Below, one piece after another: positions 6,564-48,033 of a DNA stretch of 56,864 bases. This stretch comes from a virus. Position 1 is the first letter of the stretch, and each line of letters opens with the position of its first letter. Position numbers and translations under genes: made by a program. The DNA is taken from IMG/VR virus record IMGVR_UViG_3300045988_073657. One strand, written 5' to 3'. The notes beneath the pieces are model-generated. The model made no database searches. It had not been told where the DNA came from and saw only the letters and a program-made list of their open reading frames with translations.

Positions 6564-6941
6564 ATGGCAAGAACAGCAGATTACACACGCAAAGCAATTA
6601 ACAATTACCGTAGTAAATTTGATCTTGTCCAAATCAGATTACCAAAAGGCACAAAGGACAGAGCGGCAGAATCAGACATAAATATAAATGATATAGCTGT
6701 ATCGGCTGTATTGGCTTATTTAGACGCTTTGGATAACAAGTCGGAGAATTTGCCGCAAGAGCAGAAAAATATTGCAGAAAAGGCAAATACAGAGCGCACA
6801 GAGGTAGAAGAGAAAGTTGCATTGATGCAAGCAAATGAAAGATTGCATCAGCTCCAGGAGCAAAGGAGAGCAGAACGGAAAGCATCGGAACAACCGCAAG
6901 TTGTGGACGCTGAGGAATTTTTGAAAAATATCAATAAATAA
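6564..6941 (+). CDS. Ribbon-helix-helix (Arc/CopG-like) DNA-binding protein
   Basis: N-terminal YRSKFDLVQIRLPKGTKD...INDIAVSAVLAYL pattern; AAGGAGG RBS. Confidence 0.6.
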   Translation: MARTADYTRKAINNYRSKFDLVQIRLPKGTKDRAAESDININDIAVSAVLAYLDALDNKSENLPQEQKNIAEKANTERTEVEEKVALMQANERLHQLQEQRRAERKASEQPQVVDAEEFLKNINK

Positions 6942-10421: not shown

Positions 10422-10823
10422 ATGCAGATATTTGGGAAAGAAATAAAAGACGAATGTTCAAAATGCGGTGAAGTCCTGCAATGCGAATTGTTTCTGCAAG
10501 GCCACGGAATCAAGAGAAACCGTGAGAACGTTACGGAAATGGTTAGCTGTCAGATGAAGCACCAAAAGAGCAGACTTGATAAAGAGCCTAAAGAAGATTT
10601 GCCAGTTAAGGAGAAATGTGAATTGCCGCCGGAGATTAAAGAGATTTACACAGAAGTTTGGAAAATCCATAAAGAGTGCGCTAATCCGAAAACGGATGAT
10701 GACTGGTCGTATCTTATCCGGCAAGGCAATCTGCTGATTAAAATGCACAACAATAGCCAGTTTGCTAAAGCACTGGTAATGGCAATGATTGATGAAATTG
10801 AAGAAAGGAAGAAGAAAAAATGA
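10422..10823 (+). CDS. Hypothetical protein
   Basis: 133-aa ORF. Confidence 0.55.
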   Translation: MQIFGKEIKDECSKCGEVLQCELFLQGHGIKRNRENVTEMVSCQMKHQKSRLDKEPKEDLPVKEKCELPPEIKEIYTEVWKIHKECANPKTDDDWSYLIRQGNLLIKMHNNSQFAKALVMAMIDEIEERKKKK

Positions 10824-11005
10824 AAAAGATAATCAGGAAATTCTTAAAAGTATGTTCTTCAACAGCATTACTTACTATTTGCGGAAGTTGTTTTCAGATT
10901 GCAAGGGATTCTAGTGCAGATACAATTTCGAGAGTGCTGTGCATTGCGTTCGGACTGATATTTATGATTGCAAATTACTTTGTGTGGGAGGTAGAGTTAA
11001 CATGA
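10820..11005 (+). CDS. Small membrane protein
   Basis: ATGA-coupled to the upstream gene; two hydrophobic segments. Confidence 0.55.
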   Translation: MKKIIRKFLKVCSSTALLTICGSCFQIARDSSADTISRVLCIAFGLIFMIANYFVWEVELT

Positions 11006-11166
11006 TTTTATTCATAATTTTGAAAATCGTGACAACCGCAGTAATGGCGTTTTTCGCAATAGCAAGTGCATTTGATGCTCCTAAACAGAAAAAAGCATCA
11101 GACGAAGTTATTTTATTCGCATTTGCAATGTTCCTTGCGTTTGGAATAACTTTTATGTGGGTATAG
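11002..11166 (+). CDS. Small membrane protein
   Basis: ORF 10939..11166 trimmed to ATG 11002 (ATGA overlap); two TM segments. Confidence 0.55.
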   Translation: MILFIILKIVTTAVMAFFAIASAFDAPKQKKASDEVILFAFAMFLAFGITFMWV

Positions 11167-11169
11167 CCT

Positions 11170-11334
11170 ATGTGGTTACCGGAGATTATGCGAATTATCC
11201 CATATCACATCGTTGAATGGGTTAAATTCATAAAGCCATTGTTATTGCCGAATATCCTGTGTTGTGTTGGCATTGGATATGTGTCGGAGAAATCAAGGCA
11301 TCAAGAGTGTATGCAGCCTGTGTGCGGGAAATGA
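11170..11334 (+). CDS. Possible 54-aa ORF (below the ORF-track cutoff)
   Basis: Translated by hand: MWLPEIMRIIPYHIVEWVKF...; weak RBS. Confidence 0.3.
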   Translation: MWLPEIMRIIPYHIVEWVKFIKPLLLPNILCCVGIGYVSEKSRHQECMQPVCGK

Positions 11335-11389
11335 AAAATGAAATAATGCGTTCGACAACACTAAGTTTTTCAAAGTACCGTGCACAGGC

Positions 11390-11418
11390 TTGACAATTTT
11401 TAAATTAAGCAATATAGG
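11390..11418 (+). promoter_or_regulatory. Promoter TTGACA-17-TATAGG ahead of the RNA island
   Basis: Read directly from the sequence. Confidence 0.5.
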
Positions 11419-11467
11419 GTGTTTCACGAAAATAATCCGGGAGCAGATGGTCTCTCTCCCGGAGTTT

Positions 11468-11538
11468 AGGGCTATCGCCAAGCGGTAAGGCACAGCACTT
11501 TGACTGCTGCATCCCAGGTCCGAATCCTGGTAGTCCTG
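11468..11538 (+). tRNA. tRNA-Gln (anticodon UUG)
   Basis: Hand-folded cloverleaf: acceptor agggcta/tagtcct, anticodon loop cTTTGac; T-loop TCCGAAT is atypical (C55). Confidence 0.7.
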
Positions 11539-12048
11539 TTTCGCAGATGTTTTCTTCTTTCGGTCTTTGCCATCTGCGAATTGTCTTCCATACTTTTCCA
11601 TTGGAGACACTCCTTTCACCTCATAGCGGAATGCTGTTAAGAGCCGTCGCAAGGCTCGTGAGGGTTTAACCGGTTTATGATAGACCGGTTTTTGCAGAAT
11701 ACCGTTGTTGGTTTAATCTGCATCTGTTTTGTACCATACAACAGTTTAGAAGAGTATGTGGCTCAACAGAGATACTGCACAGCCCTTGCAGACATAAAAT
11801 GGGTGTATGTGGTGACAGAATAGGTATTGTTAATGTGTAAGGCTTGATAATGGTCGGGCGGTAATACGCTGACAGACGTTCACAGGAATGCAAGCTATGT
11901 GAGGTGCAAATCCTCACTCACATACGCATCCGGTCCGCTACCGGATATAGTGTTGGTGGCAGAATCCCACTTGAATCAAAAAAATGCCGTAAGTGTTGCT
12001 TGGTGTCCGAGCCTTAAATGTCGGCAGACAGCTTGCGGAAATGTATAT
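11539..12048 (+). ncRNA. Large structured non-coding RNA candidate (possibly ROOL/GOLLD-class; class not verified)
   Basis: 510 nt without a credible ORF; GC visibly higher than the flanks; many perfect local stems; flanked by tRNAs. Confidence 0.45.
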
Positions 12049-12121
12049 TGTGACGTAGCGCAAATGGAGAGAGCAACAGTCTTCTAAGCTGTGGGGTATG
12101 GGTTCGAGTCCCTTCGTCACA
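12049..12121 (+). tRNA. tRNA-Arg (anticodon UCU)
   Basis: Acceptor tgtgacg/cgtcaca; anticodon loop cTTCTaa; T-loop TTCGAGT; one mismatch each in the D and T stems. Confidence 0.65.
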
Positions 12122-12242
12122 ATGGGTGTTGTTGCAAGTACACTCCGAGTACGCTTATTACAGAAGCATAGGGGATAAATACACCGGTTAATGTTTATCT
12201 CATGGGAACTTGATGGAGCCGCTTGCGGCTGACTAAAAAATC

Positions 12243-12276
12243 CTTGGGTGGGAGATAACCAAGTAAAAAACCTCCC
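12243..12276 (+). ncRNA. H-type pseudoknot candidate with an A-rich loop 3
   Basis: S1 cttgg(12243-47)/ccaag(12259-63); S2 gggag(12250-54)/ctccc(12272-76); L3 taaaaaac. Confidence 0.35.
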
Positions 12277-12280
12277 GACT

Positions 12281-12363
12281 GCAGATATGGTGTAATGGTA
12301 TCACAGTAGCTTGCTAAGCTATCCAGCAGAAATGCTGTCAAGGTTCAAATCCTTGTATCTGCG
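12281..12363 (+). tRNA. tRNA-Ser (anticodon GCU)
   Basis: Acceptor gcagata/tatctgc; loop tTGCTaa; paired long variable arm cagca-gaaa-tgctg; T-loop TTCAAAT. Confidence 0.8.
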
Positions 12364-12457
12364 TTTATACGAGTGGGAACGCATATTATTTTTCGCAGGG
12401 GGATATGCATAATTGTGAGTTGAGATACCTGTTTTAGCAATTAACCATGCTATATTT

Positions 12458-12541
12458 GCCATGTGTCCGGTTGGTCGAGGGTGCTGTCTTGAAAACAGTC
12501 TGGATGTAAAAGGCTTGCAGGTTCAAATCCTGTGTACGGCG
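12458..12541 (+). tRNA. tRNA-Ser (anticodon UGA)-like, degenerate
   Basis: D region gtgtccggttggtcgaggg and loop cTTGAaa fit tRNA-Ser, but there is an acceptor A-C mismatch and the variable arm does not pair. Confidence 0.4.
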
Positions 12542-12609
12542 TTTATCTTTATTTCCACTTAGCCGGGTACTACTGCAATAGTTCCGGTCGATGGGAGATG
12601 TATGGATAG

Positions 12610-12719
12610 TAGTTGCTCATTATCGGTCAACGAAAAACACTTCTGCGAGTAGAATTTGCAGATTCAAAAGCAGTCGTACATTGTTTGGGTCGGGTGGGTT
12701 CAACTCCCACGGCAACTAT
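12610..12719 (+). ncRNA. tRNA-like element: canonical T-arm plus 7-8 bp acceptor helix, but no canonical anticodon arm
   Basis: gtggg-TTCAACT-cccac; tagttgct pairs with ggcaacta about 100 nt apart. Confidence 0.35.
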
Positions 12720-12877
12720 TCCCTAGCTAAAACGTAAGCCACATATGTTTAGCGAAAACCAAGCCTATGAAGTAGAGAACAGACAAGACTGTGAGATTGT
12801 GGATAGTCAGTGACAAGTAGGCGGTGCACATTTGGTTATGGCAAGCGCAAGCCATAAAAGGTTTTACGGTGCGATTC

Positions 12878-12950
12878 CCATGTATAGCTTCAGTGGTAGA
12901 ACAGCATCCGCATAGGATGTGTGCCGGCGGTTCGATTCCGTCTGCATGGG
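12878..12950 (+). tRNA. tRNA-Met/Ile2-like (anticodon CAU), atypical G33
   Basis: Acceptor ccatgta/tgcatgg; loop cgCATag; T-loop TTCGATT. Confidence 0.55.
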
Positions 12951-12966
12951 TTACGGAGGATATGAT

Positions 12967-13254
12967 ATGAAACATATCAAAGAATGTAGCACTTGCGACA
13001 GGTGCGGAGCAGAGATAGGGAAAATGCCGGATTTTTTAAATTATTTGATTCCGGTAAAAATGCCAGCACATTTTCGTATGGATTATTTCGAAAAGACAGG
13101 TTATATAGCAAATGAACGACTGTTGAGAAACAAAATGCTATCCGCAACCATCGTTGTAATCCATGAACGTAAATCAAAGGAATATGAATTATGCCCTAAG
13201 TGCCGGAAAGAGTTTGAAAGGTGGATGAAAAATGAGCATGGCAGCAGTAATTGA
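12967..13254 (+). CDS. Zinc-ribbon protein (CxxC...CxxC)
   Basis: ORF 12919..13254 trimmed to ATG 12967 after GGAGG; the longer version would overlap the tRNA. Confidence 0.6.
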   Translation: MKHIKECSTCDRCGAEIGKMPDFLNYLIPVKMPAHFRMDYFEKTGYIANERLLRNKMLSATIVVIHERKSKEYELCPKCRKEFERWMKNEHGSSN

Positions 13255-13495
13255 GAGAATAGAGCGTGATGCACTACTAATCAGAGAACACAATCCAGAG
13301 ATCATTGGCAGAATAAAAGATATTCCAGCAGTGATATGTGAACCTGAAAAATATGATATGTACGAACAAATTTTTGATACGGCGTTGGTGGAACATCGTT
13401 GCCAGCACTGCAACCGTCTTTTAGGAAAGTTTTTGGGACAGGCTGAAATCAAATGCCCGAAATGTGGGAAAATCAATAGAATCGGGGTGAAATAA
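13232..13495 (+). CDS. Protein with C-terminal Mu Com-like zinc finger
   Basis: CQHCNRLLGK...EIKCPKCGKIN matches the Com-type pattern. Confidence 0.6.
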   Translation: MSMAAVIERIERDALLIREHNPEIIGRIKDIPAVICEPEKYDMYEQIFDTALVEHRCQHCNRLLGKFLGQAEIKCPKCGKINRIGVK

Positions 13496-13498
13496 TTT

Positions 13499-13669
13499 GT
13501 GAATCAAGTAAAGTTGGTGAAATGGCAATATTGCAAAAACCTTAATGATATAAATCAAGCCATTCTGCAAAACGACCAGAATTGGGAAGAATTAAAGAGT
13601 GCAGAACAAATTATCAGTATAACATTTGACACAAACCATATGTGTTATGTTGTGTTTTGGACTGTTTAG
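13499..13669 (+). CDS. Possible 56-aa ORF (below the track cutoff)
   Basis: Hand translation from GTG 13499: VNQVKLVKWQYCKNLNDINQAILQND... Confidence 0.35.
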   Translation: MNQVKLVKWQYCKNLNDINQAILQNDQNWEELKSAEQIISITFDTNHMCYVVFWTV

Positions 13670-13763
13670 CATAGCAAATAGAATATTTCCAAGAGCACCA
13701 GTCGTAGAGTGCCTACGCAGAGAGCCAAATTTCCAAAATTTTAGGGAAGGAGGCTCTTTTATA

Positions 13764-15503
13764 TTGGCAAGTCAGAGCCTTATATCGGCAGTAAACAGCT
13801 ATGACAATTACATACAGCGCAAGGGAATTGATGAACAGGTCATTGATGCGTACATACAGGCATTATCGGTTGCATTTCGGTCAGAAAATGATGTTAAGTA
13901 CGGATTGCAGCAATCAGCAAAAACAAAGTCACTTATTGCAAAATATGTCAGAGAAAAGACAGGCGGAAGAGTTGCTGATTTGGAAGTATACGCAGGGGAT
14001 AATGATACATCATATAAAATTTTAGATCAATTTTACAATGTTTTAATGTATGAATCAGCGTATCTAGTTGACAGCTTTTTTTATTACATTGAAATTGATG
14101 AAAAGGATCCGTGGAAGAGATTTTATTTTCCAAGAAGAAACGTTTTAAAACAAGTAGTAGGAGCATATCAAGAAATTTACGATGGGAAACTGGATTTTCT
14201 ATCAGTTTCCCAGCCAAAACGTACAGGAAAGACAACCGGAGGATTGAAACTGGCACAAATGATGGGTGGAAGAGATCCAGACGGAAGTATTTTCGGTGTT
14301 GGAAAAGGTGAAGGACTGGTAAAGAGGTTTTACGGTGGTCTTTTACAAGGATTTGAGACTGAAAGTACTTATCAGCGGTTTTTAAGTGTTTTTCCGGAAG
14401 CTACAAAAATAAGCAAAGATGGATACAAGAGTGCAGAGAATTTGTCCATAGACCTTAAAAGCAAGAATATTTTTCCAACATTTACTTGCCGACCTATTGA
14501 CGGTGCAATTGTAGGTTGTACGGAAGCAAATGTGCTTGTCTATATTGATGACTGCGTAAAGAACCATGAGGAAGCAAGAAACAGAGACAGGCTAGAGTTC
14601 CTATGTGAGAAGGTCACAGATGACGTTTTAGGACGTAGATTAGAGGGTACGCCAATTATTATCCAAGGAACAAAATACAGCTTGTATGACCCTATTACAG
14701 CGTTACAGACCAAGGCTGATGAACTGGGATGGAAATGGAGAGAAGTTGCAATTCCGGCACTTGATCCGGTCACGGATGAAAGTAACTGGGAAATTTACCG
14801 AAAGGACAAGCGAGGTCTTAGAAAAATATTCACTACGGACTATTACCGGAAAGAAAGAAAACTTGTTTCCGAAGAAACCTGGGCGGCAGAGTTCCAACAA
14901 GAGCCATACGAAGCAAAGGGAAGAATGTTCTCTGAAAGTGAGTTAAATTATTTTGAGGAACTTCCAGTTGACAGAGAGCCGGATGCAATCATGGCGGCTT
15001 GTGATAGTGCTGACAAGGGAGAAGATAGCTGCGCTATGCCAGTCGGATATGTGTACGGTAACGAGGTATATATCGTTGATGTAGTATTTGATAATGCAGG
15101 AACACAGTTCACAAAGCCTGAATGCGCAAATATGCTTATTAAGCACAATGTTAAAACAGTCACTTTTGAGAGCAACAGTGCCGGGGAATATTTTGGTCGT
15201 GATGTTATGGACATTGTAAAGTCGCAGGGAGGAAGATGTAGCGCAAGGTTTAAGTTTAACTGTTCCAACAAAATTACGAGAATGGAAAATGCAAGGGATA
15301 ATGTAATTCGTGATTATTATTTTCGTGATTTCAAGAAAATGGACAGGCAGAGCCAGTACTACAAATTCATGAAGGAATTAACCACTATGACACGTAGCGG
15401 AAAAGTAAAACACGATGATGCACCGGATAGCATTGCATTGTTTGAAAATGAGATGCGTAGCGGATACATAAAGCCAACAGTAATTTTGCCAAGCCCTATA
15501 TAG
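13764..15503 (+). CDS. terL: Terminase large subunit
   Basis: Walker A-like QPKRTGKTT; VYIDDCV; C-terminal nuclease-like AACDSADKGEDS; start set to TTG 13764, 10 nt after GGAGG (the ORF is open from 13626). Confidence 0.85.
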   Translation: MASQSLISAVNSYDNYIQRKGIDEQVIDAYIQALSVAFRSENDVKYGLQQSAKTKSLIAKYVREKTGGRVADLEVYAGDNDTSYKILDQFYNVLMYESAYLVDSFFYYIEIDEKDPWKRFYFPRRNVLKQVVGAYQEIYDGKLDFLSVSQPKRTGKTTGGLKLAQMMGGRDPDGSIFGVGKGEGLVKRFYGGLLQGFETESTYQRFLSVFPEATKISKDGYKSAENLSIDLKSKNIFPTFTCRPIDGAIVGCTEANVLVYIDDCVKNHEEARNRDRLEFLCEKVTDDVLGRRLEGTPIIIQGTKYSLYDPITALQTKADELGWKWREVAIPALDPVTDESNWEIYRKDKRGLRKIFTTDYYRKERKLVSEETWAAEFQQEPYEAKGRMFSESELNYFEELPVDREPDAIMAACDSADKGEDSCAMPVGYVYGNEVYIVDVVFDNAGTQFTKPECANMLIKHNVKTVTFESNSAGEYFGRDVMDIVKSQGGRCSARFKFNCSNKITRMENARDNVIRDYYFRDFKKMDRQSQYYKFMKELTTMTRSGKVKHDDAPDSIALFENEMRSGYIKPTVILPSPI

Positions 15504-47730: not shown

Positions 47731-48033
47731 ATGCAGATGACAGGTTATGAATTGTTGGAAAATTATGAAAAAGCGGAGGATAAGGACAAACAGATTCAGA
47801 TTCTTGCGGATTTGAACCACATTCCGTTTGATATGGTGAGTTTTGTGATTGATAACAGTGAGAAATTCGATGCTTCAGAGACACCGTTATCCACAGAAGA
47901 ATTTGCAAAGTGGTGTGAGACTGAACTTGACCGTGTGGATGCTCATATCCATGCACAGGAAAAATATTATAGAGAAATTTGCAATGTATACAGAATTGCA
48001 AGTACATACGGGAAAAGGAGTGCAAAATCGTGA
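47731..48033 (+). CDS. Hypothetical protein
   Basis: 100-aa ORF. Confidence 0.5.
   Translation: MQMTGYELLENYEKAEDKDKQIQILADLNHIPFDMVSFVIDNSEKFDASETPLSTEEFAKWCETELDRVDAHIHAQEKYYREICNVYRIASTYGKRSAKS

Follow-up and report, generated by a model that had tools for sequence, protein, structure and literature searches.

ROOL and GOLLD are large ornate RNAs (Rfam; PMC12286853, PMC5737381). An earlier note on the IMG/VR virus record IMGVR_UViG_3300045988_073657 had proposed that about 510 nucleotides (nt) between two of its tRNA genes belong to one of these classes or are an unclassified analogue. The window, that is the whole stretch of 56,864 nt that was analysed, contains this interval as 508 nt between tRNA-Gln and tRNA-Arg. 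Like ROOL and GOLLD, the interval is non-coding and lies beside tRNA genes in a phage or prophage of Gram-positive bacteria, a location that is not in itself discriminating. It differs from them in having no covariance-model match and in being composed of shuffled modules of 20-120 nt rather than one large conserved unit. One of the modules is TL1, a tRNA-like (TL) RNA of 120 nt without an anticodon arm, at 11806-11925 on the + strand. The interval is probably a set of tRNA-array cassettes, from which TL1 would be cut out as a stable, non-decoding tRNA mimic.

The TL RNAs are apparently an undescribed and widespread family, tRNA mimics as such being already known. With the type II tRNAs (Leu, Tyr, Ser) they share a 7-bp acceptor stem, U8, the D-arm GCGGAAUAGGUAGACGC with G18-G19 and a T-arm, as well as a long arm that ends just 5' of the T-stem and a CCA that is not encoded. 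They differ from these tRNAs in having no anticodon arm, in having G and not U at T-loop position 55, in the 60-150 nt of the arm, and in an acceptor/T stack of 7/6, compared with the canonical 7/5 (PMC5389517). The bacterial Y RNA YrlA is also a non-decoding mimic with D-like and T-like arms and an acceptor-like stem, and is phage-borne too; YrlA of M. smegmatis, in which this stem is 7 bp, is cleaved by RNase P and gets CCA (PMC4201824). YrlA is permuted, however, with the T-arm followed by a closed acceptor stem-loop and then the D-arm, and ends in a Ro60-binding stem (PMC4201824), whereas in TL the D-arm precedes the T-arm and the RNA ends at the acceptor. The staphylococcal tRNAGly species used for cell-wall synthesis, outside the ribosome, have TGC in place of TTC in the T-loop and hence no pseudouridine 55 (PMC7826273), as in TL. 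These are complete tRNAs with anticodons that are charged by GlyRS (PMC7826273), whereas the TL discriminator is variable.

YrlA gave no Rfam hit in the interval or in the canonical TL loci, and no Ro60-like (TROVE) gene was present among the approximately 38 open reading frames (ORFs) of the window that were scanned against Pfam. No transfer-messenger RNA (tmRNA) was found by ARAGORN or Rfam. The tRNA cluster of T4 encodes 'species 1 and 2' (rnaC/rnaD), small stable RNAs that are not tRNAs, are transcribed together with the phage tRNAs and are matured by tRNA-processing enzymes. The analogy with TL is by description only, T4 infecting E. coli and the TL family belonging mainly to Bacillota phages. 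In the tRNA-like domain of tmRNA, in mascRNA/MALAT1, in the MHV68 TMERs and in mitochondrial tRNA punctuation, an acceptor/T minihelix recruits RNase P and RNase Z and defines the ends of RNAs. TL differs from these processing modules in its full D-arm and elbow and its hypervariable internal domain, and has no mRNA-like frame or pseudoknots.

TL1 and its family

The 7-bp acceptor stem of TL1 (11806-12/11918-24) is followed by U8-G9 (11813-14) and by a D-arm with GG (11815-30), the D-stem of which is ACAG/UUGU where the family has GCG/CGC. The T-arm (11899-11917) has a 6-bp stem and the loop UGCAAAU, and the discriminator is C at 11925. The T-stem is one of six helices listed for the interval in the earlier note, all of which are perfect where they were placed. 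An anticodon arm, with a 5-bp stem, a 7-nt loop and U33, is absent from TL1. The D-arm leads instead into a stub of 11-12 nt and then a long branched helix, and this branched domain of 65 nt stands in for the anticodon and variable arms. The domain includes the covariation-supported helix P1 (11841-46/11891-96) and P2 (11853-55/11875-77, with an inner part at 11858-60/11867-69). Since it has no anticodon arm, TL cannot decode.

The family came to light from the T-arm-like hairpin at 11899-11917, which prompted a search for T-arms accompanied by a matching acceptor strand. The covariance model R1 rests on 44 TL elements taken from unrelated phages, none from the phage group of the window and none with the window type of insert, and its structure annotation holds the acceptor, D and T pairs only. 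R1 has a sole significant match in the window, at 11806-11925, with 59.6 bits, an E-value of 4e-13 and model positions 1-119 of 119 covered; the one other match is a T-arm fragment at 47805-47821 (8.7 bits, E 2.7). A search of IMG/VR with the large terminase, TerL, gave 80 related loci with 89-99% identity. Over these loci R1 recovers 38 full-length copies, all on the gene strand, and zero ordinary tRNAs.

As a tRNA (RF00005), TL1 has no Rfam hit at E<=10 (cmscan with all 4227 families of Rfam 15) and no call from ARAGORN at default settings. With introns, relaxed thresholds, or the tmRNA or mitochondrial modes, ARAGORN makes poor or spurious calls only, including a permuted tmRNA. It is very improbable that TL1 is a decoding tRNA, Leu-like or Tyr-like, that is split by a small spliced intron. 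The D-arm UGGCGGAAUAGGUAGACGC is indeed that of a type II tRNA, blastn with the D-arm part also finds annotated tRNA-Leu genes, and relaxed ARAGORN gives a poor tRNA-Tyr(AUA) at 11827-11925. However, the acceptor stem of that ARAGORN model is mismatched, the insert is not flanked by anticodon stem halves, and the inserts, at 60-150 nt, are below the size of group I introns and have no match among the intron families of Rfam. The sequence UAAG after the D-arm was also considered as a UAA anticodon, a reading that does not hold, since most members have a base other than U at position 33.

The 5' half of the frame shared by TL elements is a 7-nt acceptor strand, UG directly after it and a type II-like D-arm, which is followed by an insert of 50-150 nt. 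The 3' half begins with AUG and a 6-bp T-stem closed by the loop U(G/U)CAAAU, and finishes with the other 7-nt acceptor strand, complementary to the first, and one further base. The frames covary strongly in the first scan, which itself required pairing, and for this reason a test was made with the unbiased pattern TGGCGGAATRGGTARACGC-N55-85-GGTKCRAATCC. At least 120 IMG/VR stretches matched it. A perfect 7-bp acceptor stem together with a perfect 6-bp T-stem, neither of which is demanded by the pattern, is present in 94 of the 120 matches listed. Among the matches listed there are 110 unique elements, selected only by D-arm, T-loop and spacing. Over the 13 frame pairs of these elements, 1346 of 1430 cells (94.1%) are Watson-Crick, 36 are G-U and 11 are A-C or C-A. 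All four pair types occur at each acceptor position from 1 to 6, and position 7 is a nearly invariant G-C. The excess of G-U over A-C/C-A is what would be expected of RNA made from the strand on which these elements are read. The T-loop is TGCAAAT in 92 of the 110.

The discriminator is A in 57% of members, and CCA is not encoded. T is enriched at position -1 (45%) and at position +1 after the discriminator (50%), and a T-run follows the element in only about 10%. Constrained folding of 192 members gives a D-arm, a stub of 11-12 nt that is often a mini-hairpin of 3-5 bp, and a long, often branched helix, the 3' strand of which stops 2-3 nt before the T-stem. The topology predicted in this way amounts to a stubbed anticodon arm with a hugely expanded variable arm.

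Homologues of the window insert are found in unrelated contigs (L086; the group of L131, L199, L290 and L292; and L276 with L291). A scan with a pattern for the window type of insert returned mostly chance matches, and 8 unique sequences in 3 groups were retained after filtering. P1 has the versions GGCUUG/CAAGCY, GAACUG/CGGUUC and GAGCUG/CAGUUC, with three of its six pairs changed on both sides. For inner P2 the versions GCG/CGC, GAC/GUC and GUAC/GUAC were read by eye, and these changes were not formally counted because the register shifts.

Canonical TL members from five loci have no match in Rfam even at E<=1. No description of the family was found in full texts, including by the literal motifs GGTGCAAATCC and GGCGGAATAGGTAGACGC, although many subscription papers are outside this coverage and a prior description is possible. 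The SPP1 re-annotation paper makes no mention of TL. A tRNA body without an anticodon arm, with its elbow and acceptor under strong selection, points to the use of the tRNA shape outside decoding.

Location, probable processing and possible roles of TL

In the 39 TL loci with enough flanking sequence, the element is intergenic and on the gene strand. A late transcriptional activator (phrog_248, 36 or 2198), of the class described in PMC3753634, is encoded next to TL on its upstream side in five of seven loci tested, and in six of seven tested the first large downstream ORF is the large terminase, at a distance of 1-2.5 kb. In the window, TL1 is 1.7 kb upstream of TerL (13626-15503). TL is nearly always at the entry to the packaging operon. 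Members are often solitary, in a locus without a tRNA.

Using blastn against GenBank phages, both frame ends are found in SPP1, phi3T, SPbeta hybrids, Listeria LP-101, and Enterococcus, Brochothrix and Paenibacillus phages, and a TL copy that is 95% identical is present in Bacillus phage vB_BauS_KLEB27-1. The annotation of TL in the GenBank phages is either none or 'hypothetical protein', and never RNA. A scan of species-representative genomes gave 108 matches, mostly in Bacillota (Paenibacillus, Listeria, Lactobacillaceae, Bacillus and its relatives, and Clostridia metagenome-assembled genomes), with a few in other metagenome-assembled genomes. Both phages and prophages of Listeria, Enterococcus, Lactobacillaceae and Paenibacillus are among the carriers. 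The reading of TL as an attP or integration site was rejected: an integrase is adjacent only in vB_BauS_KLEB27-1, TL elsewhere lies close to terminase genes, and G-U pairs are more frequent than A-C. The SPP1 copy (NC_004166 6647-6756) scores 82.7 bits with R1; genes 9 and 11 flank it, and the doubtful antisense 'gene 10' overlies it. Directly 3' of this copy is a mini acceptor/T-arm hairpin, ACGGAC...CGGG-UUCAAUU-CCCG...GUCCGU (L425:2624-2666; NC_004166 ~6774-6816), which is a possible second tRNA-like minihelix.

RNase P, RNase Z and the CCA-adding enzyme recognise tRNAs by their acceptor stem, U8, D-loop GG, T-arm and elbow. Since these are the parts conserved in TL, TL is probably excised in the same way as its tRNA neighbours. 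This is supported by the parallels with YrlA, which is cut by RNase P and gets CCA (PMC4201824), and with the TGC T-loop of the staphylococcal tRNAGly (PMC7826273).

It is proposed that the interval would be a segment of one long + strand transcript of the tRNA array, entering the packaging genes. This segment would be a string of independently folding cassettes, made up of leader and trailer hairpins flanking each tRNA, a 45-nt three-way-junction motif and TL1. TL1 retains just those parts of a tRNA that maturation enzymes read (7-bp acceptor stem, U8, GG in the D-loop, T-arm and elbow). RNase P would cleave the 5' end, RNase Z or exonucleases would trim the 3' end, and CCA would be added to the trimmed RNA. 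Maturation would free a stable, L-shaped, non-decoding RNA and would simultaneously sever the polycistronic transcript. The variable branch may be the specific part of TL, differing between phages, and the cassettes would come and go by recombination between conserved tRNA segments.

It is rather unlikely, if still deserving of attention, that TL and its flanking hairpins are no more than cis-acting cleavage or stability signals that split the late RNA, the released RNA being functionless and the insert filler. Conservation across the family is limited to features read by RNase P and RNase Z, with inserts that differ completely; the usual site, downstream of the late activator gene and ahead of the terminase genes, would suit such a signal, as would the mini TL of L023 with almost no insert. 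Nearly all members nevertheless hold an insert of 60-150 nt, without shrinkage. The inserts are structured and covary within subclasses (seen in P1 and P2 for the window type, and by eye for the L003 type), one insert type is found with different frames (L038 compared with L077), and the tertiary nucleotides of the D-loop and T-loop are kept, beyond what a cleavage site needs. Because the inserts are retained, structured and exchanged as units, a functional released product is judged likelier than punctuation of the transcript.

A number of points weigh against the excision of TL1 as a stable mimic from an array of cassettes. The processing of TL, its CCA addition and its stability are all inferred from sequence. 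The acceptor and T stack is 13 bp, compared with the canonical 12 (PMC5389517), and this might impair some tRNA enzymes. In TL1, position -1 and the base after the discriminator are both G, where the family prefers T. Among the relatives L001-L032, TL1 is found only in L003, L004 and L014 besides the window itself, so that it is dispensable, being carried by a minority of the closest relatives, and the shrunken copy in L023 may mean decay. Hairpins H1, H3 and H5-H8 of the interval are without variation, which gives no covariation test of their predicted structure. The promoter candidate at 11390-11418 is neither called by a scan nor conserved among relatives.

More tentatively than the excision of TL1, it may be suggested that TL RNAs are unrecognised, widespread phage tRNA mimics with a type II acceptor/D/T core, no anticodon arm and a hypervariable structured arm, which are made late, mature like tRNAs and act in trans on host factors that bind tRNA, the junction motif and a further element, TL2, being additional new RNA classes. 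Candidate roles in trans are those of a decoy, a sponge or a non-ribosomal aminoacyl carrier; possible targets of a decoy are defence toxins or nucleases directed at acceptor ends, and TL might also compete for RNase P or a synthetase. The processing, charging, partners and phenotype of TL are directly testable, since SPP1 and B. subtilis are tractable.

A protein of 498 aa with DUF2828 and DUF7788 (vWA-like), classed by PHROGs as 'RNA-binding protein' (phrog_850), is encoded at L093:2620-4113, 0.6 kb downstream of TL. Homologues are at L152:3243-3647, a TL locus, and at L432:1649-2551, a junction-motif locus. The protein could be a partner of TL in a minority of phages. A link to Ro60 and Y RNA appears unlikely, with the DUF2828/vWA protein adjoining TL in only two of approximately 228 loci (L093 and L152).

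A mosaic of cassettes

By blastn of the array, most close relatives share 11540-11667/11718 and 11980-12047 with the window. Only L004 has all of 11719-11979, with parts of it in L003, L014, L023 and L032, and in most relatives tRNA-Tyr or other sequence replaces 11668-11979. The distance from tRNA-Gln to the next tRNA is 147-683 nt among relatives, with Gln<263-272>Tyr<121>Arg and Gln<364>Ile/Arg as frequent layouts. Side-by-side reading reveals discrete modules with sharp breakpoints, and over the 80 relatives the modules are swapped, deleted or substituted by tRNA genes. As the relatives show a modular mosaic, the inherited unit is not one folded RNA of 510 nt, contrary to what had been supposed.

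A single large ornate RNA of about 510 nt, be it ROOL, GOLLD or an analogue, is highly improbable. Its appeal is in the phage location beside tRNAs, in a segment poor in ORFs and rich in hairpins, and in the folding energy. The + strand minimum free energy of the 508 nt is -165.3 kcal/mol, compared with -143.3 +/- 6.9 for shuffled sequences (z = -3.2; 1 of 100 shuffles as good). The - strand folds almost equally well (z = -2.95), however, and because the two z values are nearly equal the strand is not identifiable from folding energy alone. There is no conserved long-range pairing, and the modules are independently inherited. With cmscan, only tRNAs are found in the whole window at gathering score, and nothing credible is found within 11540-12047 when 11100-13100 is searched at E<=10. 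The arrays of 10 related loci contain tRNAs and one int-alpA, with no ROOL and no GOLLD. The giant-RNA reading is largely refuted by these results. What survives of the proposed 'unclassified analogue' is that unclassified, covariation-supported RNAs are indeed present, but they are small (a 45-nt motif, the 120-nt TL1, and leader and trailer hairpins) and not giant. At least three RNA families that have covariation support and are absent from Rfam 15 are present in the spacers; arrays of this kind are usually annotated gene by gene, with the spacers ignored.

The exchange of cassettes has left traces in the window. The sequence at 12457-12541 (+) is a chimera, the 5' two thirds of which are identical to tRNA-Ser(UGA) of L004 while the T-arm and the 3' strand of the acceptor are foreign, and the Trp cassette is missing. 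Its acceptor stem is mismatched because the T-arm and acceptor 3' strand are from another cassette. ARAGORN makes no call here, the Rfam tRNA-Sec model gives 28 bits, and this chimeric tRNA is probably dead. Direct repeats in the T-arm, at 12341-12368 and 12519-12546, are deletion junctions in relatives and are the substrates of recombination. Recombination between T-arms is thus shown to build and break tRNA cassettes. In L023 (3830-3895 region) there is a TL with the acceptor, a D-like stub, the T-arm GUAGGG-UGCAACU-CCCUAC, the acceptor strand and almost no insert, and in L001-type relatives only the 5' acceptor strand of TL, GTAGGTGG, is left, fused to a tRNA trailer. Both are deletion derivatives of TL cassettes.

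Such traces might suggest that the whole interval is debris, made of decayed tRNA genes and recombination scars without function, but this is improbable. The array is highly recombinogenic, as seen in the broken chimeric tRNA, the truncated TL 5' strands and the shrunken TL, and the middle of the interval is absent in most close relatives. On the other hand, the TL frames are 94% Watson-Crick, with full covariation, over approximately 190 diverse members from many groups of phages, with no sign of an intact ancestor able to decode. The core of the junction motif is also nearly invariant while its outer stem covaries, and leader hairpins covary.

Other elements of the array

The three-way-junction motif is at 11619-11663 (+), with P1 at 11619-23/11659-63, P2 at 11625-27/11633-35 and P3 at 11641-45/11653-57, the last with the loop GUCGCAA. 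Its covariation was assessed in 20 variants that were picked by the invariant core sequence only. In these 99.2% of cells are paired; P1 is 100% paired, with three of its five pairs changed on both sides, and the covariation score was reached by 0 of 500 shuffles. P1 is found in five versions (CCUCA/UGAGG, CCCAC/GUGGG, CCUAU/AUAGG, CCCCA/UGGGG and CCAUC/GAUGG). The motif is present in at least 120 IMG/VR contigs, mostly gut phage genomes of 50-65 kb, and has no Rfam match. Its P3 loop, GUCRCAA, is shaped like a 7-nt anticodon loop. The junction motif and TL1 are autonomous structured RNAs.

The pyrimidine tract CUCCUUUC / CCUCCUUUC, at 11609-11618 in the window and also present in homologues (L430, L437, L442 and others), is usually just 5' of the junction motif. 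It is identical to the anti-Shine-Dalgarno end of 16S rRNA, and read on the - strand it gives a strong ribosome-binding site, with no conserved ORF after it. A pseudoknot of CUCCUUUC with the GGAAW loop of the junction motif was dropped, the covariation being nil. A hidden small protein, encoded for example by the 40-aa + strand ORF at 11547-11669 or by a - strand ORF with the strong Shine-Dalgarno-like GAAAGGAG before an ATG at ~11602, is scarcely to be expected. These ORFs do exist, and 8 nt from the ATG there is a good ribosome-binding site, formed by the complement of the conserved CUCCUUUC. However, TAG is directly after the same ATG in the L002-type variant, the - strand ORF runs antisense through tRNA-Gln, there is no Pfam or PHROG match, and substitutions track base pairing and not codons.

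The interval had been called ORF-free, its surroundings being without a credible ORF of 60 aa or more. Taken literally, an absence of such ORFs is wrong, and mechanical ORFs of this length do overlap the interval: 62 aa (+, 11899-12087), 80 aa (-, 11675-11917), 60 aa (-, 11938-12120) and 119 aa (-, 11293-11652). They traverse tRNA genes or non-conserved modules, and seven ORFs compared with Pfam and PHROG gave zero family matches. For these reasons it still holds that no credible gene is present.

A second tRNA-like RNA, TL2, is at 12611-12719 (+) and belongs to a different family. Its acceptor is AGUUGCU/GGCAACU and its T-arm GUGGG-UUCAACU-CCCAC; it lacks a canonical D-arm and carries a 23-nt loop that is conserved, GAGUAGAAUUUGCAGAUUCAAAA. 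Across 35 unique homologues, 29 pairs of the alifold structure are 99.3% paired, and 13 of these are changed on both sides. TL2 has no Rfam hit.

The tRNA genes are accompanied by hairpins, all on the + strand. A strong leader hairpin, TCCGGGAG/CTCCCGGA (11436-11463), ends 3 nt 5' of tRNA-Gln and is conserved in the near clade; in L023 it is CCGGTAG/CTACCGG, a compensatory change of both sides. It is possibly a processing or insulation element. The trailer hairpin of tRNA-Gln, H1 (11540-11580), has a 10-bp stem and a 21-nt loop and is nearly invariant in 10 variants, and in other clades hairpins of unrelated sequence are in its place. H2 (11583-11608) has 7 alifold pairs in 9 variants, all paired, 3 of them changed on both sides. 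H3 (11668-11690; AACCGGT/ACCGGTT), with a U-rich tail after it, is invariant, hence uninformative, and is not called as a terminator. H4 (11693-11722; UGCAGA/UCUGCA, inner ACC/GGU) has 2 pairs changed on both sides in 17 variants.

H5 (11723-11772) is predicted, there being only 5 near-identical copies of segment 11723-11791. H6 (11775-11791; CUGCA/UGCAG), also predicted, is CCGCA/UGCGG in L001-type relatives. The predicted H7 (11928-11946) is a trailer directly 3' of TL1, invariant in 6 copies, and analogous trailer hairpins are 3' of tRNA-Tyr in relatives. H8 (11955-11971), likewise predicted, shows no variation and is followed by an A-rich linker (11975-11986). The leader structure of tRNA-Arg (11987-12038) has an outer stem (11987-94/12031-38), an inner hairpin (11998-12012) and a further hairpin (12019-12030); 24 variants are 98.1% paired, and 6 pairs have two-sided changes, 4 lying within the inner hairpin. 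Most of the modules are thus supported by covariation; for H5-H8 the variants are too few.

The phage of the window is temperate and siphovirus-type, with TerL, an SPP1-type portal, RecT, an antirepressor, methylases and an integrase. The tRNA array is upstream of TerL, with the portal and integrase in the same window. Both tRNAs said to flank the interval were confirmed by ARAGORN and Rfam, tRNA-Gln(UUG) at 11467-11539 (+; Rfam tRNA 57.5 bits) and tRNA-Arg(UCU) at 12048-12123 (+; 57.0 bits). The two programs concur on tRNA-Ser(GCU) at 12280-12364, and tRNA-Met at 12877-12951 is called by ARAGORN alone. The next ORF begins 15 nt past tRNA-Met, and the array continues into it without a predicted + strand terminator, none being predicted in 10800-13390. 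In a blastn search of the whole array against 50,697 GenBank phages, the tRNAs were the sole matches.

The proportion of G+C is 0.44-0.48 in the interval and 0.35-0.40 in the coding flanks, as had been noticed, but the whole array (11400-13000) is raised to the same degree and the enrichment is not specific to the interval. The promoter-like TTGACA-17-TATAGG is present at 11390-11418 (+) and is doubtful, a consensus scan making no call. In close relatives the -35 sequence is GTGACA, GAGACA or GTTAAA and the spacer is 9-19 nt, and in the other clade tRNA-Gln is directly 3' of a stop codon.

Two known RNAs were found above the Rfam gathering score in the fetched loci, an int-alpA RNA (44.8 bits) at L074:2344-2412 (+), immediately 3' of a suppressor tRNA, and a Twister-sister ribozyme (44.7 bits) at L119:2892-2961 (-). 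Suppressor-type tRNAs are found in relatives with the anticodon UUA at seven loci and CUA at one (L003:3684-3769, L036:3420-3491, L037:2558-2643, L052:2263-2348, L054:1691-1762, L065:3040-3113, L074:2269-2340 and L031:4235-4309). Stop-codon read-through or recoding in this phage group is a possibility. The UUA tRNA of L003 differs by one base from the tRNA-Tyr(GUA) of its relatives.

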